Source: Candidatus Doudnabacteria bacterium (GTDB lineage: Bacteria; Patescibacteriota; Doudnabacteria; UBA920). Taken from it: a stretch of 64,000 bases of DNA. This document shows positions 1,525 to 54,179 of this stretch, piece by piece. The notes beneath the pieces are model-generated. The model searched no databases and had not been told where the DNA came from. It worked only from the letters and a program-made list of their open reading frames with translations. How positions within the stretch are numbered: the first letter of the stretch is position 1; every line of letters begins with the position of its first letter. Made by a program: the position numbers and the translations under genes. The DNA lies in the NCBI GenBank assembly GCA_963768175.1, contig CAVYGQ010000001.1:100481-164480 (forward strand), written 5' to 3'.

Positions 1525-3408
1525 ATGCCTAAAATTTGGAAAGTAAAAACCAAAATTCCCGATGACATCGCGCAAAATTTATCGGAGTATCCGGAACTTT
1601 TGCGGCAGCTGTTTTTTAATCGTGGATTGACGGGAAAAGACCAAATTCAGGATTTTTTGGAGCCAAAATACGAAAATCTATACAGCCCGTTTTTGTTTAA
1701 AGATATGGAAAAGGCGGTGGAGCGGATTTGGCAGGCAATTGACCGGAGTGAAAAAATTTGTATTTATGGCGACTATGATGCCGACGCGATTACTGCCAAC
1801 GCGGTGCTGGCGCAGACGTTTAAATATTTAGGCGTTGAGATTTTATCGTACATCCCTGACAGGTTTACCGAAGGATACGGCATTAATATCGATGCTCTGT
1901 TAAAGATAAAGGATGAAGGATCAAAGATAATCATAACCGTTGATTGCGGCACTAATTCCGCTGACGCGGCAGAGTTTTGCAAAAAAAATAATATCGATCT
2001 AATTATTACCGACCATCATGAAATCATCGGAGAGGTTCCTGATGCTTACGCGCTGATAAATCCCAAAAATCCCGATGACAATTATCTATACCGCGATATT
2101 ACGGGAGTCGGGGTGGCATTTAAGCTGGCTTGCGGGATTTTATCAAAACGTGAAAAAATTATCGCGCGTTTTGAACCCTCACCCCTAGCCCCTCTCCCAA
2201 AGGGGGAGGGGAAGCCCGGAGTTGTGGGATGGGAAAAGTGGCTGCTTGATTTGGTGGCCATCGGCACGGTGGCGGATTGCCACAGCCTACTGGGGGAGAA
2301 TCGGATATTAGTAAAGTATGGTTTAAAAGTTTTGGCCAAGACGAAGTGGATTGGTTTACGCGCGTTGATGGAATCCGCGGGTTTGGCAGAGGTGTCCCCT
2401 CTGCAGCAGAGGGGACACCTCTGCCCGTTGAAGCCGCTTGATACCTATACCCTAGGCTTTATCATCGCGCCGAGATTAAACGCGGCGGGCAGGCTGGAGC
2501 ATGCCGGCATTGCTTTGGATCTATTGCTGGAAACCGATGCCAATCGCGCAAACGAAAAAGCCCGCAAACTGGAAGCCATAAATACGCGCCGGCAGGGGCT
2601 GACTGCGGAGGTGTTAAGCGAGGCCAAGGAAAAGGTCTTATTGCTTAAGGAAAGAAAAGTTTTGGCACTTGTAGGTGAAGGTTGGCCCAAAGGCGTAATG
2701 GGCCTGGTCGCCGGTAAATTGGCCGAGGAATTTTATAAGCCTACGATTGTGTTGGAAAAAACGGAGAATTTATGCACTGGTTCGGCCAGAACCGCCGGCA
2801 AGTTTGATATTTTGGAGGCTTTAAAGTTTTCTTCCGAGCATTTGTCCAAATTTGGCGGCCATAAACAGGCCGCTGGTTTGAGTTTAGAGGCCAATAAATT
2901 TGACCTTTTTTACCAGAAACTATTGGAATATGCCGAGGTAAAAATTGCGCCGGAATCGGCACAAAAAGCCCTTGAGCTGGAAGCAAAACTTGAGGGTCAT
3001 GACCTAATACCTAACACCTATAACCTAATATCTAAACTCCAGCCATTCGGCGTGGACAATCCCACTCCAAAATTTTTAGTTTCCAATCTTGAAGTTTCAT
3101 CAATCCGCATGGTCGGCAAGCAAACCCAGCATTTGCAGGTGAGATTTATATTGCCTTTTCGGCGTCATTCTGACCCTGAGCGGAGCGAAGGGGAAGAATC
3201 TCAATCAAAAGGAGAGATCCTTCGCTCCGCTCAGGATGACGCCGGGGTGAGTGGCAGGGAAATCGCCGGTATTATGTTTAATGCGCCGGATTTTGCCAAA
3301 ACTTTGAAAATCGGCGATACTGTAGATGTCGCGGCAGAGTTAATTGAGGACGGGTGGAACGGGAAGAGGGAAGTGAAGTTGCGCATCGTAGACCTAAAAA
3401 TTATCTAA
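1525..3408 (+). CDS. recJ: Single-stranded-DNA-specific exonuclease RecJ (DHH/DHHA1), with three in-frame palindromic insertions
   Basis: The DHH motifs (ICIYGDYDADAITA, IITDHH) and a DHHA1 region with an OB-fold C-terminus are present. Extra peptide segments are encoded by palindromes at 2189-2211, 2387-2423 and 3160-3247. Confidence 0.9.
   Translation: MPKIWKVKTKIPDDIAQNLSEYPELLRQLFFNRGLTGKDQIQDFLEPKYENLYSPFLFKDMEKAVERIWQAIDRSEKICIYGDYDADAITANAVLAQTFKYLGVEILSYIPDRFTEGYGINIDALLKIKDEGSKIIITVDCGTNSADAAEFCKKNNIDLIITDHHEIIGEVPDAYALINPKNPDDNYLYRDITGVGVAFKLACGILSKREKIIARFEPSPLAPLPKGEGKPGVVGWEKWLLDLVAIGTVADCHSLLGENRILVKYGLKVLAKTKWIGLRALMESAGLAEVSPLQQRGHLCPLKPLDTYTLGFIIAPRLNAAGRLEHAGIALDLLLETDANRANEKARKLEAINTRRQGLTAEVLSEAKEKVLLLKERKVLALVGEGWPKGVMGLVAGKLAEEFYKPTIVLEKTENLCTGSARTAGKFDILEALKFSSEHLSKFGGHKQAAGLSLEANKFDLFYQKLLEYAEVKIAPESAQKALELEAKLEGHDLIPNTYNLISKLQPFGVDNPTPKFLVSNLEVSSIRMVGKQTQHLQVRFILPFRRHSDPERSEGEESQSKGEILRSAQDDAGVSGREIAGIMFNAPDFAKTLKIGDTVDVAAELIEDGWNGKREVKLRIVDLKII
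3160..3247. repeat. Family-1 palindromic element inserted in-frame in recJ
   Basis: ggcgtcattctgaccctgagcggagcgaagg ... ccttcgctccgctcaggatgacgcc encodes FRRHSDPERSEGEESQSKGEILRSAQDDAG without interrupting the ORF. Confidence 0.8.
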
Positions 3409-3483
3409 ACATCTAAACATATAAACATTTAAGCATTCAGTAGTTGCTTATATGTTTGCATGTTTAAATGTTAATATGTTTAT

Positions 3484-3885
3484 ATGAAACTTATCATCAA
3501 CACCGACGGCGGGGCGCGCGGTAATCCCGGGCCGGCGGGGATTGGCGTTGTAATTGCCGATGGCGTTGGGCATATCATCAGCCGCCACAAAAAATATATC
3601 GGCGAAGCGACCAATAACGTAGCGGAATATAAGGCCTTGATTTTGGCGTTAAAGGAAGCGCACAAGCTCAAAACTGATCAACTGTTGGTAAATATGGATA
3701 GCGAACTAATAGTCCGGCAAATGCAGGGCAGGTATAAAATAAAAGAGCTGTCGCTCAAGCTTTTGGCGGCGGAAGCGTTAAAACTCATCAGCCAATTTAA
3801 AAACGTGATTTTCCATCACGTCCCCAGAGAACAAAATAAGGAAGCGGATAAACTGGTAAACGAGGCGATAGATAAAGTTATCTAA
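3484..3885 (+). CDS. rnhA: RNase H family protein (type 1 RNase H-like)
   Basis: The translation carries the DGGARGNPGPAGIG..EATNNVAEYKALILAL pattern of the RNase HI fold with DEDD catalytic residues. Its size (133 aa) is consistent. Confidence 0.7.
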   Translation: MKLIINTDGGARGNPGPAGIGVVIADGVGHIISRHKKYIGEATNNVAEYKALILALKEAHKLKTDQLLVNMDSELIVRQMQGRYKIKELSLKLLAAEALKLISQFKNVIFHHVPREQNKEADKLVNEAIDKVI

Positions 3886-5252: not shown

Positions 5253-5352
5253 TATAATCCGAATTATCCGAATACTGCAATCCAAATGACCCGAATGGGG
5301 GAACGGATAGATTTGGGGCATTCGGATATTAATTCGGGGTATTAGGATTATA
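5253..5352. repeat. ~100-bp inverted-repeat (MITE-like) element, copy A, immediately upstream of mreB
   Basis: tataatccgaattatccgaatactgcaatccaaatgacccgaat ... cattcggatattaattcggggtattaggattatat. The same arms occur at 11212-11658 and 13926-14022. Confidence 0.8.
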
Positions 5353-5357
5353 TTTCC

Positions 5358-11211: not shown

Positions 11212-11658
11212 TATAATCCGAATTATCCAAATACTGCAATCCAAATGACCCGAATTGTGGAAAAAGATTTATCCTACAAGATAACCGGTTTGTGTTTTAA
11301 AGTTCATAAAAAGTTAGGGAGATTTGCTAGTGAAAGACAGTATTGTGATGAATTTGAAAATTATCTAATAAAGGAAAATCTTCCATATGAAAGAGAGTTC
11401 GTAATCAAAAAGTTGTTACCTGATTCACCCGCAGGGAACAGGGTTGATTTTTTTGTTAAAGGGAAAGTTATTATAGACTTTAAAGCCAAACCTTTTATTA
11501 CCAAAGAAGATTATTTTCAGATGCAACGTTATTTGCAGGCAGCAAACCAGGAGTTGGGATTAATAATAAACTTTCGGGCTTATCGATTAACACCCAAGCG
11601 GATATTGAACAGCGGTTATTCGGGTCATTCGGATATTAATTCGGGTAATTAGGATTAT
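11212..11658. mobile_element. MITE-like inverted-repeat element, copy B, carrying a GxxExxY ORF between its arms
   Basis: The left arm at 11212-11256 and right arm at 11618-11658 are homologous to the arms of copies A and C. The ~360-bp interior is occupied by ORF 11245-11652. Confidence 0.6.
11245..11652 (+). CDS. GxxExxY family protein (PD-(D/E)XK-like fold)
   Basis: The GLCFKVHKKLG..E..Y..E.E... pattern is characteristic of the GxxExxY family, and the size (135 aa) fits. Confidence 0.65.
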   Translation: MTRIVEKDLSYKITGLCFKVHKKLGRFASERQYCDEFENYLIKENLPYEREFVIKKLLPDSPAGNRVDFFVKGKVIIDFKAKPFITKEDYFQMQRYLQAANQELGLIINFRAYRLTPKRILNSGYSGHSDINSGN

Positions 11659-13340
11659 TGTTTGAAACAAAAATGATTGTTAATATCCTCCTCATAATAG
11701 ATTTTCTAATGCTGGCGGTTGTTGTCAGCGCTTATATTTACGCCTCACTGCGCGAGCGCAAATATTTGCGCAAAGAAGCGGGGCAGTCACTGGAGCTGCA
11801 GCAAAAAGTTTATCAGGCCGAAGTTTTAAAAGAAATCAGTGAACGTATCGGTTACTCCTTGGACACCAATAAAATTGTGGATATTATTACCAGCTCGTTG
11901 GGCAACCTGCTGGATTACGACGCCGTCTCTTATATGGTTTTGGAAGAAGGCGGCAGGCCCGTGTTTAAATGCCACGTGCAAAATACCGTTAACCATCAAT
12001 TCATAGAAGACGTTAAGCAGAAAATGCTTATGTCCTACGAGGCCATTTTGGACAGCAAAATCCAAAGCAGCGATATGGATGAAAGCATTACCGGTAATAT
12101 TTTGGATGATAACCTAAAAGTTAAAGTGGAATCTTTTTTTAATTTGCCGGTGGTAATTTCCCAAAAATTAGTGGGGCTGATAAACGTGGCTTCCAAAGAG
12201 CGCGGCCGTTTTGGCGAAGAACAAGCGTCTATTTTATACGCCATTACCAACCAGGCGGCTACGGCTGTTTCCAAGCTCCAGGCAGTGCTGCAGAGCGAAA
12301 AAGGCAAACTGGAGGCGGTAATTTATTCTTTGGCCGACGGAGTCATAACTGTAGATTTAAACTACCATCTGGTTGTTTATAACCCGGTGATTAGGGATAT
12401 ACTGGGCATTGCCCAAGGCAAGCCCGTAACCATGTACGATATTGTCGATGGTTTGGCTGGTAAGGTTGATTTAAGGACTAAAATTGAGCAGGCCGTGGCC
12501 GAAGGCAAGGACATAACCTTGCCCGAAGTTATTTTAAGAGATAAAGCTTTGGAGTTGACCATTGCGCCGGTTAAAGACAGCCAGGGGGAGATTATCGCGG
12601 CCAGCGTCGTTTTTCATGACATTACCACGGAAAAGACTTTGGAAAAAACCAGGCAGGAATTTACGGCTATGATGGTGCATGAGCTGCGTGCTCCGCTAAC
12701 GGCTGTCCGTTGGTCTTCGGAATCCATGATCAAAAATTTAAGCCTGGCCTCCGGAGTTGGCCAGGCCAAAATTAAAGACACCATGCTGACCATTGAAACT
12801 GCTTCTAACAACATGCTGGAGCTGGTCAACGACCTTTTGGATGTGGCCAAAATTGAATCCGGAAAGTTTGAACTGAATCTTCAAGAGTATGATTTGGTAG
12901 AGGTTATTAACGATCAGGCCAAAGTTTTCAGGCCACAGGCGGAAATAAAGCATTTGGCGATTAATGTTATTACCCCGCCAAAGTATATGTTAAAATTTGA
13001 CCGCGTCAGGGTTGGCCAGGTGCTGGGCAATCTAATGAGCAACGCCATTAAGTATACCGACAGCGGGCAAATTGATATTAACCTTAACATCAATGCCGAA
13101 GAAAAAATGGCCACGGTTTCCATAAAAGATACCGGCATCGGCGTATCCCGTGAAGACCTGGCGGACCTGTTCAGCAAATTTAAACAGCTAAAAACCGGCG
13201 ACCGGAGCCGCAAAGGCACGGGCCTTGGGCTGGTGGTGAGCAAGGGGATTGTGGAAGCGCACGGTGGGAAAATTTGGGCCGAGTTTGCCGGGGAAAATTT
13301 GGGATCAACCTTTTCTTTTTCTTTGCCTTTGGATAAGTAG
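11658..13340 (+). CDS. Sensor histidine kinase (TM, GAF/PAS-like, HisKA, HATPase_c)
   Basis: The H-box MMVHELRAPLTAV is present, with N, G1 and G2 boxes (GNLMSNAIKYT, DTGIGV, GTGLGL). Confidence 0.85.
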   Translation: MFETKMIVNILLIIDFLMLAVVVSAYIYASLRERKYLRKEAGQSLELQQKVYQAEVLKEISERIGYSLDTNKIVDIITSSLGNLLDYDAVSYMVLEEGGRPVFKCHVQNTVNHQFIEDVKQKMLMSYEAILDSKIQSSDMDESITGNILDDNLKVKVESFFNLPVVISQKLVGLINVASKERGRFGEEQASILYAITNQAATAVSKLQAVLQSEKGKLEAVIYSLADGVITVDLNYHLVVYNPVIRDILGIAQGKPVTMYDIVDGLAGKVDLRTKIEQAVAEGKDITLPEVILRDKALELTIAPVKDSQGEIIAASVVFHDITTEKTLEKTRQEFTAMMVHELRAPLTAVRWSSESMIKNLSLASGVGQAKIKDTMLTIETASNNMLELVNDLLDVAKIESGKFELNLQEYDLVEVINDQAKVFRPQAEIKHLAINVITPPKYMLKFDRVRVGQVLGNLMSNAIKYTDSGQIDINLNINAEEKMATVSIKDTGIGVSREDLADLFSKFKQLKTGDRSRKGTGLGLVVSKGIVEAHGGKIWAEFAGENLGSTFSFSLPLDK

Positions 13341-13925: not shown

Positions 13926-14022
13926 ATATAATCCGAATTATCCAAATGGGAACAATCCAAATGCTCCGAAAAGTAGAGCATTTGGGGCATTCGGATATTG
14001 ATTCGGGGAATTAGGATTATAT
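13926..14022. repeat. MITE-like inverted-repeat element, copy C
   Basis: tataatccgaattatccaaatgggaacaatccaaatgctccgaaaagtagagcatttggggcattcggatattgattcggggaattaggattatat. Confidence 0.8.
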
Positions 14023-14025
14023 TAA

Positions 14026-21085: not shown

Positions 21086-21706
21086 TTATGCGAACTGTTG
21101 CAACTGTCCTAAAATGGCCTGTTCCAGCTGAACAGTATCATAATGGCGTTGAGGCTTGATGTGTAAAATATTTAACTCTGAGGCTCTCAAAGCCCCGTCT
21201 AAAAAATCATCTCTTAATTTTCTATTGAAATAATTATGGGTATAATCATCCAGTTCAATAACCAAAAGTGGCGACAAATAAACTTTGTCAAAGATTACAA
21301 AATCTACTGTCTTTTTGTTTATCCTGTTAAAGTTGCTGTAAGTGGAATTTGTGCCGTATCTTTCCAGTCCGCCTTGGACTTCAATGATTCGGGATAAGGC
21401 AACCTGTGGCATAATAAAATACCTGTCCTTGATTATTTCCTGTAGCACTCCGAAAAACTTGTATTCGGTTTGGGTCATCAGGTATCGCTTTTTTCTGAAT
21501 GGATAAATTTTATCGTCTTTTTTTACTTCCTGAATTTTTGTATTGCCAGCATTACTAGGCGGTAAAGGTATCTCGGAATAATTTTGCTTTGAGCTTTTTA
21601 TGATGTAACTGGCAAGAATGATTATGATTATTAAACCAAATAAAAAATCCATAAATTTGCTTTTAGAAACACAAAGCCCCGGTCCAGCCGGGCTTTTACA
21701 CCCCAT
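21086..21706 (-). CDS. DUF2726-domain protein (NERD/restriction-endonuclease-like fold), membrane-anchored
   Basis: An N-terminal TM helix precedes the DUF2726 signature (TVDFVIFDKVYLSPLLVIELDDYTH ... RDDFLDGAL...LNILHIK). Confidence 0.55.
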   Translation of the reverse strand: MGCKSPAGPGLCVSKSKFMDFLFGLIIIIILASYIIKSSKQNYSEIPLPPSNAGNTKIQEVKKDDKIYPFRKKRYLMTQTEYKFFGVLQEIIKDRYFIMPQVALSRIIEVQGGLERYGTNSTYSNFNRINKKTVDFVIFDKVYLSPLLVIELDDYTHNYFNRKLRDDFLDGALRASELNILHIKPQRHYDTVQLEQAILGQLQQFA

Positions 21707-22000
21707 ACCCCTTTCGGGATATGACCATAAGACAGTAGCTGAACGCGGGGTTCAGTATGTCTTATGGTTTTACAGCCGTGCCTGATTAAAGGTTTAGGCC
21801 ATTCAGTTGTGATTAAATTATACCAAACTTGACAACAATTTTAAAGGGGTGTATGGTGGAGTTAGTTCATTAAAAAGTTAATAATTAAACGTAAGTTTTA
21901 TTTCTCCTCCCTCGGAGTAAGACAGGGGCTATGCCGTTTTGAACACAAAAACGGTGTGGCGTTTTGACCGCTTGTCTCAGCCATTAGAGGCCTTACAAAA

Positions 22001-28656: not shown

Positions 28657-29124
28657 GTGAGAGCTTTCTTAGTATTCTTGACATTGTTGGCCCCGACGAT
28701 GGCCAGCGCCCAGCAGGTGGACAAGATTCTGTTCTTCGGTCCGGGGTTTTCTTCGTCCTTGGCGAACGGTGCCAAAAGCGTCTCTGCCATCGGCGGAGCC
28801 AAGCTGGTCATCCACCTTGGCACCGGCGGCTGGTTCTCGCAGCTGTCCTGCTCCGCGAGTTTCGTGGAGCCGCAGATGACGGGAGCCAAGTCGTATTGGT
28901 CCATGCGACCGTCTGTCACTTTGGGTTACCGGTTCCGCAGCGGGAAAAGCCGATTCTCGGTTTTTGACGGGTTCGGCGAAACCCGCAACAAGGTTGGCGA
29001 TTTCCTGCCGACAGCAGTCGGCGGGGTGATTGTCAATCTCAAGGGTCGTTGGGGCGACCTCACTGACGTGAGCAGGAATGCTCAGTCGTGGGGGTTTTCC
29101 ACAACACTCGGCTACCGTTTTTAG
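28657..29124 (+). CDS. GC-rich signal-peptide protein resembling a small outer-membrane beta-barrel (C-terminal ...LGYRF)
   Basis: The gene is ~58-60% GC against a ~42% background. It has a signal peptide (MRAFLVFLTLLAPTMASAQQ), alternating hydrophobic beta-strand patterns and an aromatic C-terminal Phe. Confidence 0.45.
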   Translation: MRAFLVFLTLLAPTMASAQQVDKILFFGPGFSSSLANGAKSVSAIGGAKLVIHLGTGGWFSQLSCSASFVEPQMTGAKSYWSMRPSVTLGYRFRSGKSRFSVFDGFGETRNKVGDFLPTAVGGVIVNLKGRWGDLTDVSRNAQSWGFSTTLGYRF

Positions 29125-29225
29125 GAGGCCACTTTTATGTGGTACTCCGATGCATGAGGCGCGCGGATGCGACAATCCGCGCGTTTCAATCTTAAATTTG
29201 ACGGATTTTGGGGGGTTTGGTATAA

Positions 29226-29476
29226 TATCAGCAATTAAACCCCCACACCAATTTGATATAAATTTGTTAAGGGTTTAGCAAAATCCTCCAACCATTTCAA
29301 AATGAATTGGTGTGGGGGTAAACCAAAGACAGTTGGCCTCCGACTGAAACGTCGGAGTTAATTATCATCGCAAGATGATTGCCCACCGAGGAAGTGTAGC
29401 GCGCCCATTCATGGGCTGCAGCCGATAAATCGGCGCGCTACATCACACTCGGGTAAGCCCGAGTATTTTTGTTCGG
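29226..29476 (+). ncRNA. Candidate structured sRNA (promoter, five consecutive hairpins, intrinsic terminator); class unknown
   Basis: A TGGTATAAT -10 at 29217-29225 is followed by stems aaacccccacaccaatt/aattggtgtgggggtaaacc, ctccgac/gtcggag, atcatc-gcaa-gatgat and gtagcgcgcc/ggcgcgctac. The final stem cactcgggtaagcccgagtg is followed by atttttg. Confidence 0.3.
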
Positions 29477-29542
29477 CGTCATCCTGAACGAAGTGAAGGA
29501 TCTCATTAAAGAGATTCCTCGCTGCGCTCGGAATGACGCCGG
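29472..29542. repeat. Family-1 palindromic element in the rplJ leader region
   Basis: ttcggcgtcatcctgaacgaagtgaaggatctc ... gagattcctcgctgcgctcggaatgacgccgg. Confidence 0.8.
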
Positions 29543-29728
29543 TGAGAGTTGACGGATATTTATTGGTTCACCCTGTTAAATAATTCGCCAAAGGCGAATT
29601 GCCGCGAAGCGGCATTTAACAGGGACACCCTGTTAAATAATTTTTTAGTAAAAAATTACTGCGTAGCAGTATTTAACAGGGTAAAGGTCGATACTAGGCA
29701 CTTAGCACTTAGCACTAATAACTAACTT

Positions 29729-30244
29729 ATGCCAAAAGCTAAATCACAAAAGATTGAAGATCTTAAAGAACTTACGGCCAAACTTAAAGAGGCCAAAGGC
29801 GTGGTCTTTTCCGATTACCGCGGCACAACCGTAAAAGACATGGACATTTTCCGCAAAACCCTGCGCAAGGAAAAAGTCTTTTGCAAAGTCTACAAATTGA
29901 CTTTGGTTAAAAGGGCCATGAAAGATGCCGGCTTAGACGGAGAAATCGCCGACTATAAGACGCCGGTAATACTTTCGGTCTCCAGCGACGACGAAACCAC
30001 CCCCGCCCGTTTGGTCAAAAACTTGTCCAAAGACTTAAAGACTATTTCGGTTTTGGAAGGCATTGTGGACAACAAATTGGTCAACAAGGCGCAAGTTTTG
30101 GCTCTAGCCGACTTGCCGAGCAAAAACCAGCTGCGCGCGCAAATCATCGCCACCATCAATGCGCCGGTTACGGGATTTGTCAATGTTTTGGTTGGCAATA
30201 TCAGAGGCTTGATAAACGTGCTCAACGCAGTCGTAACTAAATAA
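29729..30244 (+). CDS. rplJ: 50S ribosomal protein L10
   Basis: The N-terminus KSQKIEDLKELTAKLKEAKGVVFSDYRGTTVKDM is typical of L10. Confidence 0.9.
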   Translation: MPKAKSQKIEDLKELTAKLKEAKGVVFSDYRGTTVKDMDIFRKTLRKEKVFCKVYKLTLVKRAMKDAGLDGEIADYKTPVILSVSSDDETTPARLVKNLSKDLKTISVLEGIVDNKLVNKAQVLALADLPSKNQLRAQIIATINAPVTGFVNVLVGNIRGLINVLNAVVTK

Positions 30245-30332
30245 TCATTTAAACATCAAAACATTTAAACATATAAACACGAGGCAGACGCTTAAATGCT
30301 TATATGATTAAATGTTTAAATGAAAGGAATAT

Positions 30333-35324: not shown

Positions 35325-35552
35325 CAATAACAACAACTATAACTATAACAAACCCAAGATGAGCAAGTTATAGTTATTTTTATTTTATTGTTATAGTTAA
35401 ACTTGTGGATAACTTTAAGGTAAACGTTAGTTTACCCCGTACCAAATTTGGTGGATAACCAAATTTGGTGTTTTTTTATAATTATCAAAAAAAATCAAAA
35501 TGTCCAATAAAATAAGCATTTGATGCGGGGTTTACCTTGTTTTTATTGGTAT

Positions 35553-35585
35553 TTGACACTTGGTGAACGTTCGTATATTGTATAT
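35553..35585 (+). promoter_or_regulatory. lexA promoter (TTGACA -35) with candidate SOS box GGTGAACGTTCGTATATTGTAT
   Basis: TTGACA lies at 35553-35558. The motif shared with the dinB promoter contains the palindromic core GAACGTTC. Confidence 0.5.
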
Positions 35586-35609
35586 ATGTGAGCATTAACG
35601 AACAACAAT

Positions 35610-36227
35610 ATGGAAAAAGATATCACCCAGCGCCAAAAAGAGTTATTAAGCTTTATTACAAAACAGATTCGCGACCATGCTTTGCCTCCAAGCATATCAG
35701 AAATGGCCACTTATTTAAAAGTAAAGTCCAAGAACGGGGTTGCCAAACTTTTAAATGCGCTTGAGGCACAAGGTTATATTCGGACTAGCGGCAAGGCCCG
35801 CGGTATTGAAGTGTTAAATTCTTTGGGGGAAAGTTTGCAAAAGGGCTTGGTGGCGGTGCCGCTGCTCGGCAACATTCAGGCCGGAACCCCGCACTTGGCG
35901 GAAGAAAACATTGAGGAATGGATAAATTTGCCGCAAACCTTAATTAAAAGCCGAAGGGACGTGTTTTTGCTAAAAGTCAGGGGCGACAGCATGATAAACG
36001 CCGGAATTTTTGAAGGAGATTTGGTTATAGTCCGGCCAACCCATGACGTAAGAAATAACGACATTGTAGTGGCTCTGCTCCACGATGAAGCCACGGTCAA
36101 GCGGTTTATCCAAATAAAAAACCGGGCCTATTTGAAAGCCGAAAACCCGGACTACAAAAATATTTACCCCAAAGAAGAATGGATAGTCCAGGGCAAGGTG
36201 GTGGGGGTGATAAGAAATTTAGAGTAG
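35610..36227 (+). CDS. lexA: LexA repressor (S24 peptidase)
   Basis: An N-terminal wHTH is followed by the cleavage-site region and GDSMINAGIFEGDLVIV, with a Ser/Lys dyad. Confidence 0.92.
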   Translation: MEKDITQRQKELLSFITKQIRDHALPPSISEMATYLKVKSKNGVAKLLNALEAQGYIRTSGKARGIEVLNSLGESLQKGLVAVPLLGNIQAGTPHLAEENIEEWINLPQTLIKSRRDVFLLKVRGDSMINAGIFEGDLVIVRPTHDVRNNDIVVALLHDEATVKRFIQIKNRAYLKAENPDYKNIYPKEEWIVQGKVVGVIRNLE

Positions 36228-36263
36228 GTGGGTAGCTTGTAGGGATGTAGCTTAAAAAGATTT

Positions 36264-36617
36264 ATGCAAACTTATAAAGATCTTATTGTTTGGAAGAAGT
36301 CCATGGAATTGGTTGTCGTTGTTTACAAACTTACCGATTTTTATCCGGCCTCTGAACAATATGGTTTGACTTCTCAATCACGCCGATGCTCAGTTTCCAT
36401 ACCTTCAAATATAGCTGAGGGTAAACGGCGCGGGACTATTAAGGAATTCAGACATTTTTTGTTAATTTCTTATGGCTCCGGAGCCGAATTAGAAACTCAA
36501 ATTGAGATCGCAAAACGGTTATCGTGGGGGCAAAAATTAGATTTTACAAAAGTGGATAGGCTGTTAGAAGAAGTTATGAAGATTTTAAACAAAATGATTA
36601 ATAACTTACAAGGTTGA
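36264..36617 (+). CDS. Four-helix-bundle protein (TIGR02436-like, the '23S rRNA intervening sequence protein' family)
   Basis: YKLTDFYPASEQYGLTSQ.RR...SIPSNIAEG...EF..FL.IS.GS..ELETQ matches the family pattern. Confidence 0.7.
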   Translation: MQTYKDLIVWKKSMELVVVVYKLTDFYPASEQYGLTSQSRRCSVSIPSNIAEGKRRGTIKEFRHFLLISYGSGAELETQIEIAKRLSWGQKLDFTKVDRLLEEVMKILNKMINNLQG

Positions 36618-36868
36618 AGTTACGCATTGCAGGTTCCCCTACATTCTTACTAACCTACAAGCTACTTGCTAAGCTTATGTCCGAGCTCCAGAAACAAAAA
36701 TTAAATATCCTTGCCCAGTTACGCGGGCTTTGCGCGCATTGTTCCTGTGGTTCCTCCCACCCGCATCGCTGCCCGGTGCAGGAAATTTCCGCGCGTATCT
36801 CTTCCTTGCGCGGCGTACCGTTGATTGTGAACAACGAATTCAAAGGCGTGTTTTTTTCAAAAATTTAA

Positions 36869-37304
36869 AGGTTAAATAAACACCCTCAGCAGAGACGGTC
36901 TTCCGGTAAGCTGGAAGACCGCTCTGCGAGGGCGCCCTGCGCCAAGAGGGGTTAACACCGGAGGGGCTGGCGCAGGATTTTTTGGGGGGAAGAGGCCTGA
37001 GGAGGCACTACAGTTTGGCCTCAACCCCCTGCTGCCTAAGGAACTTTTGACACCTCTCCAGAGCACGAGAGAGGAGAGGGCTTAGGAGGTTACCTCCCGG
37101 AATCTAAAGTATCCGGGAATGTCCCTGGGGGCAGCGAGCTTATGATTCCGTCCTATAATGAATTTTTGAGCCGGCGGGAGCCCACAGGCGTGGGTCTCGG
37201 AGGAGAAGGATCCCCCGCCGGCTGTCCCGAAGTATGTAAATATATTATAGGATTTTCTGTAAAGAAAGCAAGACTAAAAACACCCCAAATAATTGGGGTG
37301 TTTT
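36869..37304 (+). ncRNA. GC-rich, highly structured non-coding region ending in a bidirectional terminator; candidate ncRNA of unknown class
   Basis: The region is ~55-60% GC with nested stems (cagagacggtcttccggtaagctggaagaccgctctg; gccggcggg...cccgccggc). No plausible ORF is present. The terminator caccccaaataattggggtg lies at 37281-37300 with flanking A/T runs. Confidence 0.3.
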
Positions 37305-37379
37305 TTGGTAGCGCTACAGGGAATCGGACCCTGATTTGTTGGCTGAGAACCAACCGTCCTAACCATTAGACGATAGCGC
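37305..37379 (-). tRNA. tRNA-Glu (anticodon CUC)
   Basis: The minus strand reads GGCGCUAUCGUCUAAUGGUUAGGACGGUUGGUUCUCAGCCAACAAAUCAGGGUCCGAUUCCCUGUAGCGCUACCA. It folds as a cloverleaf with anticodon loop UUCUCAG and an encoded CCA. Confidence 0.85.
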
Positions 37380-37619
37380 CATAATTGTATCAAATAATTC
37401 TTGCCTAGCTTTATAATAATGTTTAAGGTGGTATTCTCTTTTTCGTGCTTCCGTTAAGGTAGGGCATTCTTCAGTATAGACAATTTTAAAAGGTCTGTAT
37501 GGTTTGGTTGATTTGACCTTACCGTTGTTATGGTATCGCAATCTTTGTTCTTTATCTTCTGTACATCCGATGTACTTCCAATTTTGCTTTAAGCTTTGTA
37601 ATACATATATCCAAGCCAT
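37359..37619 (-). CDS. GIY-YIG nuclease superfamily protein (small, stand-alone)
   Basis: WIYVLQS...WKYIGCTEDKEQRLRYHNNG...FKIVYTEE..T.TEARKREYHLKH matches GIY-YIG motifs. The last 7 codons overlap the 5' 21 nt of tRNA-Glu. Confidence 0.7.
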   Translation of the reverse strand: MAWIYVLQSLKQNWKYIGCTEDKEQRLRYHNNGKVKSTKPYRPFKIVYTEECPTLTEARKREYHLKHYYKARQELFDTIMALSSNG

Positions 37620-37672
37620 AAAATCGATTTAATCATAGACCGTTTCCGCCGAAGGCGGACCCGCCTCCGGCG

Positions 37673-37694
37673 GGCTAACCATTAGACGATAGCG
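37673..37694 (-). repeat. Duplicate of the first 22 nt of tRNA-Glu (ggcgctatcgtctaatggttag), a direct repeat flanking the GIY-YIG gene
   Basis: It is an exact copy of 37358-37379 and lies ~290 bp upstream of the tRNA on the minus strand. It is followed by the hairpins cccgccggaggcggg and ccgccttcggcgg. Confidence 0.7.
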
Positions 37695-37928
37695 CCTCGT
37701 CGCGCTTTACTTCGCGCTTTCGTTCCGACTTCGATCGGAACTTTCGCGCTTCGTAAAGTGCTCCTCTTCCCCAAAAATCCGTGCTCGTCCCGACTAGTCG
37801 GGACTGCGCTCCTGATTTTTGGGGACCCCTTTATTAGGGGGTCTGTGATATTCTATCAAATTTTGAGAATTTAGCCAAGTGTGGCATAATTAAATAAAGC
37901 ATGTAACATAAAACATGTAGCATTTTGC

Positions 37929-53376: not shown

Positions 53377-53381
53377 GGTCT

Positions 53382-53440
53382 CCTAATTCCTAATTCCTAA
53401 TTCCTAATTCCTAATTCCTAATTCCTAATTCCTAATTCCT
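53382..53440 (+). repeat. Heptanucleotide microsatellite (CCTAATT)x8 plus a partial unit, ending 5 nt before the rmlA start codon
   Basis: It is a perfect tandem repeat in the rmlD-rmlA intergenic spacer and replaces any recognisable RBS. Confidence 0.9.
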
Positions 53441-53444
53441 TTTC

Positions 53445-54179
53445 ATGAAAGGCATTATTCTCTCCGGCGGCAGCGGCACGCGCCTGCATCCTTTAACCAA
53501 AGTTACCAGTAAACAGCTTTTGCCGGTTTACAATAAACCGATGATTTTGTATCCGCTGGAAACCCTGCTTAAGGCCGGCATCAAAGACATTTTGATAATT
53601 ATCGCGCCGGACCACCCGGGTGACTATATGAAACTGTTGGGCTCAGGCCGCGAGTTTGGCGCCCGTTTTTCTTACGAAATTCAAGATAAGCCGGAAGGCC
53701 TGGCCCAGGCTTTTATTATTGCCGAAGATTATATTGGAAGCGATAACGTTTGCATGATTTTAGGCGACAATATTTTTGAAGACGATTTTTCCAAAACTAT
53801 CAAAAATTTCAAAAAAGGCGGGCACGTTTTTGCCAAAAAGGTGACCGATCCCCAGCGGTTCGGCGTTGTTAAATTCAACGAAAATATGGACGCGGTTAAA
53901 ATTGAAGAAAAGCCCAAGGAGTTTTTGTCCGATTACGCAATTACCGGGCTTTATCTTTACGACAATCGCGTAGTACAAGCGGCAAAATCGGTTAGGCCAT
54001 CGGCGCGGGGCGAATTGGAAATTACGGAATTGCACAACTGGTATTTAAAAAGGAATGAACTGAAAGTAGACATAGTCAAAGGGCAGTGGATAGACGCCGG
54101 CACTTTTGAATCGCTGCACCGCGCCGGCGAGCTTATGCGCCGGAAGGCATTAAATAAACCGACACCAATCCACGAATGA
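53445..54179 (+). CDS. rmlA: Glucose-1-phosphate thymidylyltransferase
   Basis: The motif MKGIILSGGSGTRLHPLT is present, with a short (244 aa) nucleotidyltransferase fold. Confidence 0.9.
   Translation: MKGIILSGGSGTRLHPLTKVTSKQLLPVYNKPMILYPLETLLKAGIKDILIIIAPDHPGDYMKLLGSGREFGARFSYEIQDKPEGLAQAFIIAEDYIGSDNVCMILGDNIFEDDFSKTIKNFKKGGHVFAKKVTDPQRFGVVKFNENMDAVKIEEKPKEFLSDYAITGLYLYDNRVVQAAKSVRPSARGELEITELHNWYLKRNELKVDIVKGQWIDAGTFESLHRAGELMRRKALNKPTPIHE

Follow-up and report, generated by a model that had tools for sequence, protein, structure and literature searches.

A candidate structured non-coding RNA gene beside an IVS-like cassette and a conserved small gene, between lexA and tRNA-Glu in Candidatus Doudnabacteria

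The orphan RNA families OLE, GOLLD, ROOL, raiA and LOOT are stand-alone, GC-rich, hairpin-dense and ORF-less elements of 300–500 nt in AT-richer genomes, and ROOL and GOLLD are often found near tRNA genes. A block with the same general properties lies beside a tRNA-Glu gene in the 64,000-nt stretch of Candidatus Doudnabacteria DNA that was analysed here as a whole (the window). It differs from these families in matching none of their Rfam models, and whereas they show conserved nucleotides and strong covariation across many genomes, the block loses sequence similarity within a genus-level group and has one alignable orthologue. With CsrB, RsmZ and Staphylococcus RNAIII it shares a multi-hairpin build, a putative promoter and terminator of its own, a hairpin architecture that outlasts the sequence, and recurrent short G- or C-rich words related to the Shine-Dalgarno/anti-Shine-Dalgarno pair; unlike in the Csr/Rsm RNAs, motif enrichment in units of the block's kind is modest and not universal, and no Rfam Csr/Rsm model matched. 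REP/BIME and MITE-like hairpins are likewise GC-rich imperfect palindromes between convergent genes whose two strands fold equally well, but the block is single-copy in the window and about 100 related loci. A neighbouring gene recalls the intervening sequences (IVS) of 23S rRNA genes (e.g. in Leptospira and Coxiella) that carry a TIGR02436/PF05635 ORF: it has a full-length four-helix-bundle (4HB) ORF, stem-forming terminal inverted repeats and insertion behaviour, and differs in lying inside an operon, between lexA and a gene for a 63-aa protein.

The region 36264–37304 of the window comprises four separate features, namely the 4HB gene, the 63-aa gene, the ORF-less block and a bidirectional terminator. 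With their neighbours they are arranged as follows:

35610–36227, plus strand: lexA, 205 aa (Pfam LexA_DNA_bind and Peptidase_S24), first gene of the operon, with the other features behind it.
36232–36243, no strand: left inverted-repeat arm of the 4HB cassette, GTAGCTTGTAGG, complementary at 12 of 12 positions to 36654–36665.
36264–36617, plus strand: gene for the 4HB protein, 117 aa, TIGR02436/PF05635.
36654–36665, no strand: right inverted-repeat arm of the 4HB cassette, CCTACAAGCTAC.
36677–36868, plus strand: 63-aa gene (small ORF) with the Cys/His motif C19-x-H21-C22 ... H30-x-C32.
36869–37237, probably minus strand: candidate ncRNA unit of ~370 nt, the body of the block; ORF-less, folded, Rfam-negative, with an orthologue in the related locus L083.
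36881–36934, minus strand: H1, a hairpin of 23 bp interrupted by two bulges, with a U-rich tract (36869–36880) behind it on the minus strand; proposed ncRNA terminator.
36936–36976, no strand: H2, a 9-bp stem with a 23-nt loop, from the helix list and the comparison with L083.
36984–37030, no strand: H3, a two-part hairpin (GGGGGG/CCCCC and GAGGCC/GGCCUC).
37031–37135, no strand: H4, a Y-shaped three-way junction.
37169–37223, no strand: H5, a 10-bp GC stem around two mini-hairpins; its minus-strand 3' arm reads CUCCCGC.
37244–37271, minus strand: putative sigma-70-like promoter as read from the sequence, TTGCTT (37271–37266), 16-nt spacer, TATAAT (37249–37244).
37277–37304, no strand: bidirectional intrinsic terminator, A5-CACCCC-loop-GGGGTG-T6, predicted to end tRNA-Glu transcription.
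37306–37380, minus strand: tRNA-Glu(CTC) with encoded CCA (ARAGORN; Rfam tRNA, 58.7 bits).

The initial annotation had placed the block directly after the 4HB gene and had proposed that 36600–37320 be scanned as non-coding DNA. Both points have to be corrected, as this stretch contains a conserved protein gene (36677–36868) that separates the two features. Judged by its sequence conservation, it is a real, overlooked and lexA-linked gene. The LexA protein of the window shares 75–93% identity with LexA proteins from Candidatus Doudnabacteria and Patescibacteria MAGs, and in each Doudnabacteria relative retrieved, tblastn placed a match to the 63-aa protein immediately behind lexA. Homologues of the small protein formed 78 protein clusters (54–84% identity), with C19, H21, C22 and C32 invariant, and identity to the L083 gene was 88, 94 and 58% at first, second and third codon positions, respectively. 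The protein matched no Pfam or NCBIfam family; its AlphaFold2 model was all-helical (pLDDT 78) and gave no match in a fold search against the PDB. It is a conserved, unannotated partner gene of lexA.

The assignment of 36264–36617 to the four-helix-bundle proteins, in turn, was fully borne out: PF05635 covered positions 1–106 of 106 with 121.8 bits (cut-off 33.8, E = 1.9e-35) and TIGR02436 scored 118.4 bits against a curated cut-off of 24, which establishes full-length membership of a family that does not require an rRNA context. No rRNA match was obtained in the 64-kb window, and the gene is flanked by lexA and the 63-aa gene rather than set in a 23S IVS. The suggestion that it belongs to an inserted element also held, on the strength of the HMM scores, of terminal inverted repeats and of presence/absence polymorphism at the site, the last two being hallmarks of an IVS-like cassette. 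Only ~18 of ~70 relatives carried the 4HB insert between lexA and the small ORF, the spacer measuring 425–457 nt with the 4HB gene in these ~18 and 2–40 nt in ~28 relatives. The repeat arms were 12 nt long and perfect in the window, where a left arm of the word type reaches over ~36228–36252, and 19–38 nt long in L083, L040 and L099. Third-codon-position identity of the 4HB gene to its L083 counterpart was 90%, compared with 58–68% in the flanking genes, and the 4HB variants at the lexA site among relatives shared 38–84% identity and carried different repeat 'words'. The further claim that the 4HB gene and the block form one unit did not survive, as each occurred without the other: five loci (L004, L006, L012, L026 and L027) contained an orthologous 4HB insert and no sequence match to the window's block, and others, such as L010, L015 and L058, contained GC-rich units of the block's kind and no 4HB insert. 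The 4HB gene is therefore an IVS-like mobile cassette that is unrelated to the block and lies 250 nt away from it by chance, and it represents a clear case of an IVS-type insertion within an operon instead of an rRNA gene.

As initially described, the block is GC-rich, stem-dense, devoid of a credible ORF and bounded by a bidirectional terminator that abuts tRNA-Glu. The GC content of 36869–37276 was 0.53–0.61, compared with ~0.42 nearby, and the block folded far better than dinucleotide shuffles (z = −8.1 on the plus and −9.4 on the minus strand; z = −7.3 for the minus strand of unit 36869–37237). When folding was regressed on GC content, the block ranked among the best stretches of the window, with 28850–29700 and 37650–37850 scoring about equally. 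Stop codons interrupted six of six frames, no reading frame was conserved, and tblastx gave no signal beyond the nucleotide-conserved ends; these stops, together with an empty tblastx comparison of the twelve units considered below, ruled out a protein-coding block. The terminator is a symmetric A5-stem-T6 hairpin with tRNA-Glu(CTC) immediately behind it.

An Rfam covariance scan, which the initial annotation had recommended, left the block without any family match even at E ≤ 10 (36150–37850). Taken together, searches of the 64-kb window and 13 related loci at gathering score and at permissive E-values yielded only tRNAs, LOOT elsewhere in the window and chance matches; among the related loci, the eight searched by E-value gave nothing at E ≤ 1, and all 13 were negative at gathering score. 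Searches for sequence relatives were equally negative: blastn of the block against the loci of 66 relatives, the window and a phage collection, together with two exact-word scans of viral contigs, returned nothing, and blastn-short of its hairpins against the 64-kb window and ~100 related loci returned only the block itself, so that REP/BIME or MITE repeats were ruled out by its single copy. A metagenome scan with an H1-derived pattern listed four unrelated high-GC contigs, and contigs with close small-ORF, 4HB or LexA homologues (P0004, P0005, P0009, P0011, P0002, P0213, P0212 and P0007) held no further orthologue or were too short. The unit was absent at the site in ~80% of relatives, with only 177 nt there in L004, and literature searches on TIGR02436/PF05635 and on CPR ncRNAs yielded nothing on the lexA/tRNA-Glu locus.

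The only clear orthologue of the block was found in L083 (JGI Ga0480571_013687), where LexA is 96.6% identical to that of the window at the protein level, lexA and the small ORF share 87.5% and 79.7% identity, and their third codon positions 68% and 58%, respectively. H1 and the promoter/terminator tail were 84–88% identical between the two loci (H1, 88%), and similarity of H2, H3 and H5 was marginal. H4 showed no detectable sequence similarity (z = 0.4), yet it had the same shape in the same place, and both sequences folded into the same five-domain hairpin layout. Among 37 aligned pairs in H1, H2 and H5, 30 were invariant, five showed double changes (one in H1, two each in H2 and H5), two changed to G-U (both in H2) and none was broken; when the partner was slid by 1–3 columns, pairing fell to 39–49%. 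In this comparison of only two sequences the observed covariation was reached by 16 of 500 shuffles, which is weak evidence, drawn from a single pair, that the secondary structure of the block has been kept through compensatory substitutions. The putative promoter hexamers were identical in L083, with four changes in the spacer, and conservation ended at about the predicted start site.

The same layout was present in ten other species (L006, L007, L010, L014, L015, L025, L040, L058, L063 and L085): a terminator, a TTGnnn-16/17-TAnnnT motif, 275–550 nt of GC-rich ORF-less sequence, and a hairpin with a U-run at the stop codon of the small ORF. These units occupy the same spot and their sequences are unrelated; the L063 unit has a sense ORF of 144 codons. 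All twelve units surpassed shuffles in folding (minus-strand z = −3.7 to −8.4). The word CUCCCGC(R)AG followed a hairpin of variable sequence in five units, its 7-mer recurred in the window unit, and in L006, L007, L010 and L015 CUCCCGC stood about as far from the putative start as it does in the window. Covariance models built from the window and L083 and from the module in L006, L007, L010, L014 and L015 did not connect the two groups: models R1 (H1 and H2) and R3 (the CUCCCGC module) found nothing beyond the sequences they were trained on, R3 missing the window block, and model R2 gave only weak matches, to the tail layout of GC hairpin, AT-rich promoter and terminator (L014, E = 1e-4; L040, E = 0.02). 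The ten look-alike units are therefore no more than putative homologues of the window unit.

Signals at the two edges of the unit point to the minus strand. An A-rich, T-poor tract preceded the first hairpin in 9 of 11 block-bearing loci. Block-bearing loci showed no T-run downstream of this hairpin, whereas many block-free loci had instead a plus-strand T-run behind the hairpin that comes first after the small ORF; H1 of the window had its U-tract on the minus strand and none on the plus strand. Minus-strand promoter-like motifs were present at the far edge in 9 of 11 block-bearing loci, compared with 23 of 59 others, such matches being common in AT-rich DNA (39–51% of control loci). The −35 hexamer of the window is weak (three of six matches), and the promoter was for this reason not listed by an automated scan. 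A putative promoter (TTGCTT-16-TATAAT) and the H1 U-tract, both of them consensus matches only, flank an ORF-less body; they are conserved in L083 and have parallels in ten other loci.

The reading that we favour, with roughly even confidence, is that 36869–37237 is a stand-alone, highly structured ncRNA gene of an undescribed, lineage-restricted Candidatus Doudnabacteria family, most likely encoded on the minus strand. The earlier suggestion of an ncRNA gene thus stands in part: the block is ncRNA-like in being ORF-less and folded, in keeping its structure in one orthologue and in its promoter and terminator signals, but the RNase P RNA, tmRNA and SRP RNA that had been considered are contradicted by the Rfam and ARAGORN results and by its absence from most relatives. 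Its transcription, the strand used and any function we infer from sequence features. Transcription would start at the sigma-70-like promoter (37271–37244) just behind the tRNA-Glu terminator, pass through the five hairpin domains from H5 to H1, and stop at H1, whose minus-strand U-tract directly adjoins the stop codon with which the convergent lexA/63-aa operon ends. It is the hairpin architecture, more than most of the sequence, that appears to be under selection, so that the RNA would turn over quickly between species. Because H1 lacks a plus-strand U-tract, transcripts of the lexA operon should read antisense through the RNA gene as far as 37304, and such read-through could couple the RNA level to SOS induction; the putative ncRNA promoter shared no LexA-box-like word with the region of the lexA promoter. 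If the reading is right, the CPR/Patescibacteria, a phylum-level group with tiny genomes, almost uncharted regulatory RNAs and poor coverage in Rfam, would gain a new RNA family. The locus would also imply that genes keeping place, signals and shape without sequence are missed by sequence-based RNA discovery, and it would offer a testable link from the SOS operon to an RNA regulator. If the block is untranscribed, it is an ordinary variable intergenic spacer.

A possible though unlikely alternative is that plus-strand transcripts of the lexA/4HB/63-aa operon end at 37277–37304 and that the block serves them as a structured 3' UTR or insulator, with hairpins that would guard the mRNA 3' end and separate the operon from the convergent, strongly expressed tRNA-Glu gene. 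The missing plus-strand U-tract of H1, from which read-through into the block is expected, suits this idea, as does the lack of space for a plus-strand promoter between the small ORF and H1. The plus strand is also G-rich and forms more G-U pairs over the twelve units (153, compared with 97 on the minus strand), and both one-sided stem changes relative to L083, which lie in H2, give G-U on the plus strand only and A-C on the minus strand. Minimum free energies were nearly equal on the two strands (−165.3 and −165.4) and 1x1 A-C mismatches were balanced over the twelve units (14 and 13), and these energies, G-U counts and mismatches allow no strand call. Against this alternative, H1 of L083 is followed by U5 on the plus strand, which would put H2–H5 behind a terminator; the A-run upstream of H1 and the far-edge TTGnnn-16/17-TAnnnT motif would be left without a role; and most relatives end the operon with a single plain hairpin and T-run and need no 400-nt UTR.

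Unlikely, too, is that the block is a non-functional remnant of mobile DNA inserted at a hot spot, its hairpins made and maintained at the level of DNA, for instance by template switching in quasi-palindromes, and not by selection on an RNA. The distance from the small ORF to tRNA-Glu does vary widely: L004 has 177 nt there, and other loci have 0.6–3.8 kb that include GIY-YIG and further genes. Cassettes of the 4HB and GIY-YIG kinds have inserted to either side, the GC content of the block is foreign to the genome, its strands fold equally well, and three assemblies end within it. On the other hand, neither a second copy nor a fragment was found in the window, ~100 related loci, the phage collection or the exact-match viral scans, and the block resembles no known element or protein. 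Its architecture has outlived roughly neutral divergence (58–68% identity at flanking third positions) with compensatory changes and no broken pair, and in many species the unit has promoter-like and terminator-like signals in a set order.

That RNA reading has a bolder form, which we consider improbable: a new class of fast-evolving, structure-conserved Doudnabacteria ncRNAs of 300–550 nt, convergent to the SOS operon of lexA and the 63-aa gene, whose abundance would, in genomes like this one, be set by SOS-induced antisense read-through and whose repeated C-rich, anti-Shine-Dalgarno-like loops would make them translational regulators or sponges. A sponge RNA like CsrB/RsmZ or RNAIII that titrates a protein or ribosomes is a quite improbable explanation of the block; multiple GGA/GGAGG (plus strand) or anti-Shine-Dalgarno-like CCUCC (minus strand) words in its loops would bind a regulator or the ribosome-binding sites of mRNAs. 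With several hairpins, a putative promoter and terminator of its own and rapid sequence turnover, the block resembles Csr/Rsm sRNAs, and loops H2, H3 and H5 of the window carry CCCCUCC, GCCUCCUCA and CUCCUCC. CCUCC occurred 20 times in the twelve minus-strand units, compared with 9.4 ± 2.9 in dinucleotide shuffles, none of 300 shuffles reaching this count, but GGAGG was enriched as well (10, compared with 5.5), as it would be if these words only formed stems, and 4 of the 12 units had no CCUCC. GGA occurred 83 times in the minus-strand units (69.7 expected, p = 0.03) and TCC, the plus-strand GGA, 104 times (95.5 expected, p = 0.10). The enrichment of CCUCC is real, but the strand specificity of the anti-Shine-Dalgarno and GGA words is not convincing.

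Very improbable is a TIGR stem-loop guide-RNA array, or the template region of a diversity-generating retroelement (DGR) served by an Avd-like 4HB protein. TIGR arrays consist of tandem variable hairpins without sequence conservation and are common in CPR bacteria; TIGR-Tas systems are defined by an adjacent Nop-domain Tas gene and by tandem units in which box C/D motifs flank two spacers (PMC12045711). Between close relatives the block is hypervariable in its middle and conserved at its ends, and PF05635 proteins are related to the DGR protein Avd (bAvd PF22296, E = 0.002), but the called neighbours include no Nop-domain (Tas) or reverse transcriptase gene, and the 4HB gene and the block are mutually independent among relatives. 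We reject a TIGR-Tas array, with no Nop domain nearby and hairpins that are irregular in unit length, one of them branched, and likewise a DGR, with no reverse transcriptase among the neighbours and no template/variable repeat pair involving the block in the window.

A very divergent housekeeping RNA has a negligible chance and is effectively refuted: although a GC-rich unit of this length beside a tRNA gene would suit rnpB or ssrA and the 64-kb window has no RNase P, tmRNA or SRP match, Rfam was empty even below threshold for the block and eight related units (no covariance-model match to RNase P RNA, RF00010/RF00011, or, in the window and related loci, to SRP or 6S RNA), ARAGORN found two tRNAs and no tmRNA in the window, in agreement with Rfam, the unit is missing at the site in ~80% of relatives, and its central domain is unconserved in L083 despite 96.6% LexA identity, which is incompatible with universally conserved cores.

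The LOOT match within the same window lies at 21690–21800.

The lexA locus was compared with those of relatives retrieved through LexA, which was 56-93% identical to the window's protein in about 68 species-level MAGs (at least 75% in most) and which places the window in Candidatus Doudnabacteria (CPR/Patescibacteria). The following features were found in the window (window coordinates):

35610-36227 (+), lexA
36264-36617 (+), four-helix-bundle (4HB) protein gene
36677-36868 (+), 63-aa ORF
36869-37276, GC-rich block between the 63-aa ORF and the terminator
37277-37304, symmetric terminator
37306-37380 (-), tRNA-Glu(CTC)
37359-37619 (-), GIY-YIG ORF
from 37929 (+), GH1 glycosidase

In the lexA promoter region (35540-35600), TTGACA precedes GAACGTTCGTAT, which may be a LexA box (Cheo-like GAAC/GTTC) overlapping the -10 region. 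The initial annotation had divided 36264-37304 into a 4HB gene and a structured non-coding stretch; gene and block were both recovered, but part of the supposedly non-coding sequence, 36677-36868, is an overlooked gene of an unannotated protein family. A homologue of this 63-aa ORF directly followed lexA in every Doudnabacteria locus retrieved, the protein was represented by 78 protein clusters at 54-84% identity, and codon positions 1, 2 and 3 were 88, 94 and 58% identical between the window and its closest relative. Cys19, His21, Cys22 and Cys32 were invariant and H30 nearly so, which suggests a metal site. No family in Pfam or NCBIfam matched the protein, and a PDB fold search with its AlphaFold2 model (helical, pLDDT 78) returned no neighbour.

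The 4HB gene belongs to a known family (PF05635, E=1.9e-35; TIGR02436, 118 bits, cut-off 24), here found in a less usual setting. While lexA and the 63-aa ORF were separated by 2-40 nt in about 28 relatives, a 425-457-nt insert with a 4HB gene lay exactly between them in about 18, and other relatives carried different inserts there. The inserts were flanked by inverted repeats of short words (GTAGC/GCTAC, TTAGC/GCTAA and similar), with perfect 12-nt arms in the window (36232-36243/36654-36665) and arms of 19-38 nt in three relatives (L083, L040, L099). This anatomy is that of the 23S-rRNA intervening sequence, which, however, sits in rRNA, whereas the window's cassette sits within an operon; no rRNA was found across the window. 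Between the window and L083 (3582-3935), the 4HB genes were 93.8% identical (codon positions 94/97/90%). Since third positions were 90% identical here and only 68% in lexA and 58% in the small ORF, the cassette is much younger than its surroundings or was swapped between lineages, suggesting recent transfer or gene conversion; the roughly equal divergence of the three codon positions also suggests relaxed constraint on the protein. In relatives with an orthologous insert nothing matched the sequence of the window's block, and GC-rich units also occurred in relatives lacking a 4HB insert; insert and block therefore do not form one unit. Elsewhere in the window, a PD-(D/E)XK_3 (PF13366) ORF (11245-11652) is flanked (11212-11661) by word-type inverted repeats, AATCCGAAT.../...ATTCGGATT, and its arm pairs recur back-to-back and gene-less at 5253-5354 and 13953-14023; these sites resemble cassettes of the 4HB type that are empty or have decayed.

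The block described in the initial annotation is real: it has a GC content of 0.53-0.61, compared with about 0.42 in the surrounding sequence, holds no credible ORF and forms six successive helical domains. On both strands its folding energy was 8-9 standard deviations lower than that of dinucleotide shuffles. When the whole window was scanned with correction for GC content, the block was among the best-folding stretches, without being unique. A further stretch, 28850-29700, is also GC-rich (0.52-0.58) and folds strongly; it lies upstream of the L10/L12 genes, its only ORFs are dubious and overlap one another, and Rfam gave no match. It may in part represent a divergent L10 leader, given that one relative (L025, 294-481) has an L10_leader match just below threshold. 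Three independent assemblies terminate within the block (contig ends of L001/L002, L097 and L098), that of the window strain 63 nt in and two L083-type contigs about 200 nt in at the same base, which may be due to difficulties with hairpins or coverage, or to differences between strains in the middle of the block.

The block is outside every described RNA family. RNase P RNA, tmRNA and SRP RNA had been considered, but no Rfam family matched, either at the gathering score or with E-values up to 10, ARAGORN detected no tmRNA, and related loci gave no match either (eight at E<=1, 13 at the gathering score). A housekeeping RNA was rejected because nothing alignable stood at the site in most relatives; in L004 only 177 nt separate the small ORF from tRNA-Glu. 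A repeat was likewise rejected, since no part of the block recurred in the window, about 100 related loci, phage genomes or exact-word scans of viral contigs, as were DGR and TIGR elements, because no reverse transcriptase, Nop-domain gene or TR/VR repeat was found nearby. Closest in kind are orphan structured ncRNAs such as LOOT and multi-hairpin regulators of the Csr/RNAIII type; the block could be assigned to neither. A LOOT RNA (RF03000; 70.3 bits, gathering score 46.4) is itself present in the window at 21690-21800 (-), just downstream of ORF 21086-21706 (-).

The contig encoding the closest small-ORF homologue, L083 (= L096; JGI Ga0480571_013687), bears the same block (fold z=-7.3) with the same domain series: a long bulged hairpin, a simple hairpin, a two-part hairpin, a Y-shaped junction and a long GC stem with inner mini-hairpins. 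Identity was 88% in the first hairpin, H1, and 84% in the 80-nt tail that contains the terminator (alignment z 12-15), conservation of H2, H3 and H5 was marginal, and H4 (37031-37135) aligned no better than random (z=0.4); no common reading frame was found. Among the 37 alignable pairs of H1, H2 and H5, 30 were invariant, five had changed on both sides, two had become G-U and none was broken. Pairing fell to 39-49% when the partner was shifted by 1-3 columns, and 16 of 500 shuffles equalled the observed pair values; from these two sequences, conservation of structure is suggestive, not conclusive. The block is a candidate for a new, narrowly distributed RNA family, with L083 as its one alignable orthologue.

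We see an even chance that the block encodes a stand-alone ncRNA on the minus strand, about 370 nt long, starting just behind the tRNA-Glu terminator and ending with H1, convergent with the lexA operon. A promoter-like signal (TTGCTT, 37271-37266; 16-nt spacer; TATAAT, 37249-37244) has the same hexamers in L083 with four spacer bases changed, and window/L083 conservation stops near the predicted start site; no counterpart of the lexA-promoter box was found near it. Such minus-strand sites occurred in 9 of 11 block loci and 23 of 59 others. Where a block is present, the hairpin that comes first behind the small ORF is preceded by A-rich, T-poor sequence and lacks a T-run on its downstream side, and thus reads as a minus-strand terminator, whereas in many block-free loci this first hairpin has an ordinary T-run downstream. 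Structure alone does not settle the strand: the MFEs are equal, 1x1 A-C mismatches are even (14 and 13), G-U pairs number 153 on the G-rich plus strand and 97 on the minus strand, and both H2 pairs altered on one side only, relative to L083, point to the plus strand. The rival readings, a structured 3' UTR on the plus strand and non-functional debris at an insertion hot spot, we consider unlikely, the second slightly more so.

A single minus-strand layout was found in twelve loci (window, L083, L006, L007, L010, L014, L015, L025, L040, L058, L063 and L085): a terminator hairpin; a sigma-70-like promoter (TTGCTT/TTGACT/TTGCAA/TTGCCA, 16-17 nt, TATAAT/TAAAAT/TAGAAT); 275-550 nt of GC-rich sequence without conserved ORF; and, directly behind the small-ORF stop codon, a long GC hairpin with a trailing U-run. 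All twelve bodies folded better than shuffles on the minus strand (z -3.7 to -8.4). An H5+tail model weakly matched L014 and L040. Five units share the word CUCCCGC(R)AG, preceded by a hairpin of unrelated sequence, and in the window unit CUCCCGC lies about as far from the putative start. As a covariance model of this module did not reach the window, the twelve units are putative homologues on synteny and layout only.

For the putative ncRNA, the hairpin scaffold and expression signals would be under selection while the sequence drifts at a roughly neutral rate. The window's H1 lacks a plus-strand U-tract, so lexA-operon transcripts would traverse the RNA gene in antisense and end at 37304, a possible route for SOS-dependent interference. 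CCUCC was about twofold enriched in the twelve minus-strand units (20 against 9.4±2.9 expected), hinting at a sponge-like or anti-SD function; this is a lead only, because its complement was enriched too and the word is missing from four of the units.

Past the terminator, the first 22 nt of tRNA-Glu, GGCGCTATCGTCTAATGGTTAG, are present in two exact copies (37359-37380 and 37675-37696, -) flanking the 86-aa GIY-YIG ORF, in which the final seven codons coincide with the tRNA 5' end. The arrangement resembles a 316-nt GIY-YIG cassette that inserted in the tRNA-Glu gene and provides a replacement for the displaced 5' part. In L099 (5851-6113) and L100 (5869-6131), with LexA 96% identical to the window's, tRNA-Glu matches are split into segments covering positions 8-46, 43-57 and 56-73, with an additional 5' fragment, which suggests insertions in the gene or its rearrangement. 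Other repeats in the window include the 32-nt word CGGCGTCATCCTGAGCGGAGCGAAGGATCTCT (1430-1461, 3213-3244 and 29474-29504), two copies of which, spaced by 1.75 kb around ORF 1525-3408, are perfect inverted repeats of each other, 8-nt periodic AAACATNT arrays at 3399-3486 and 30234-30323 that are mutual inverted repeats, and a 7-nt TCCTAAT tandem array at 53381-53450.
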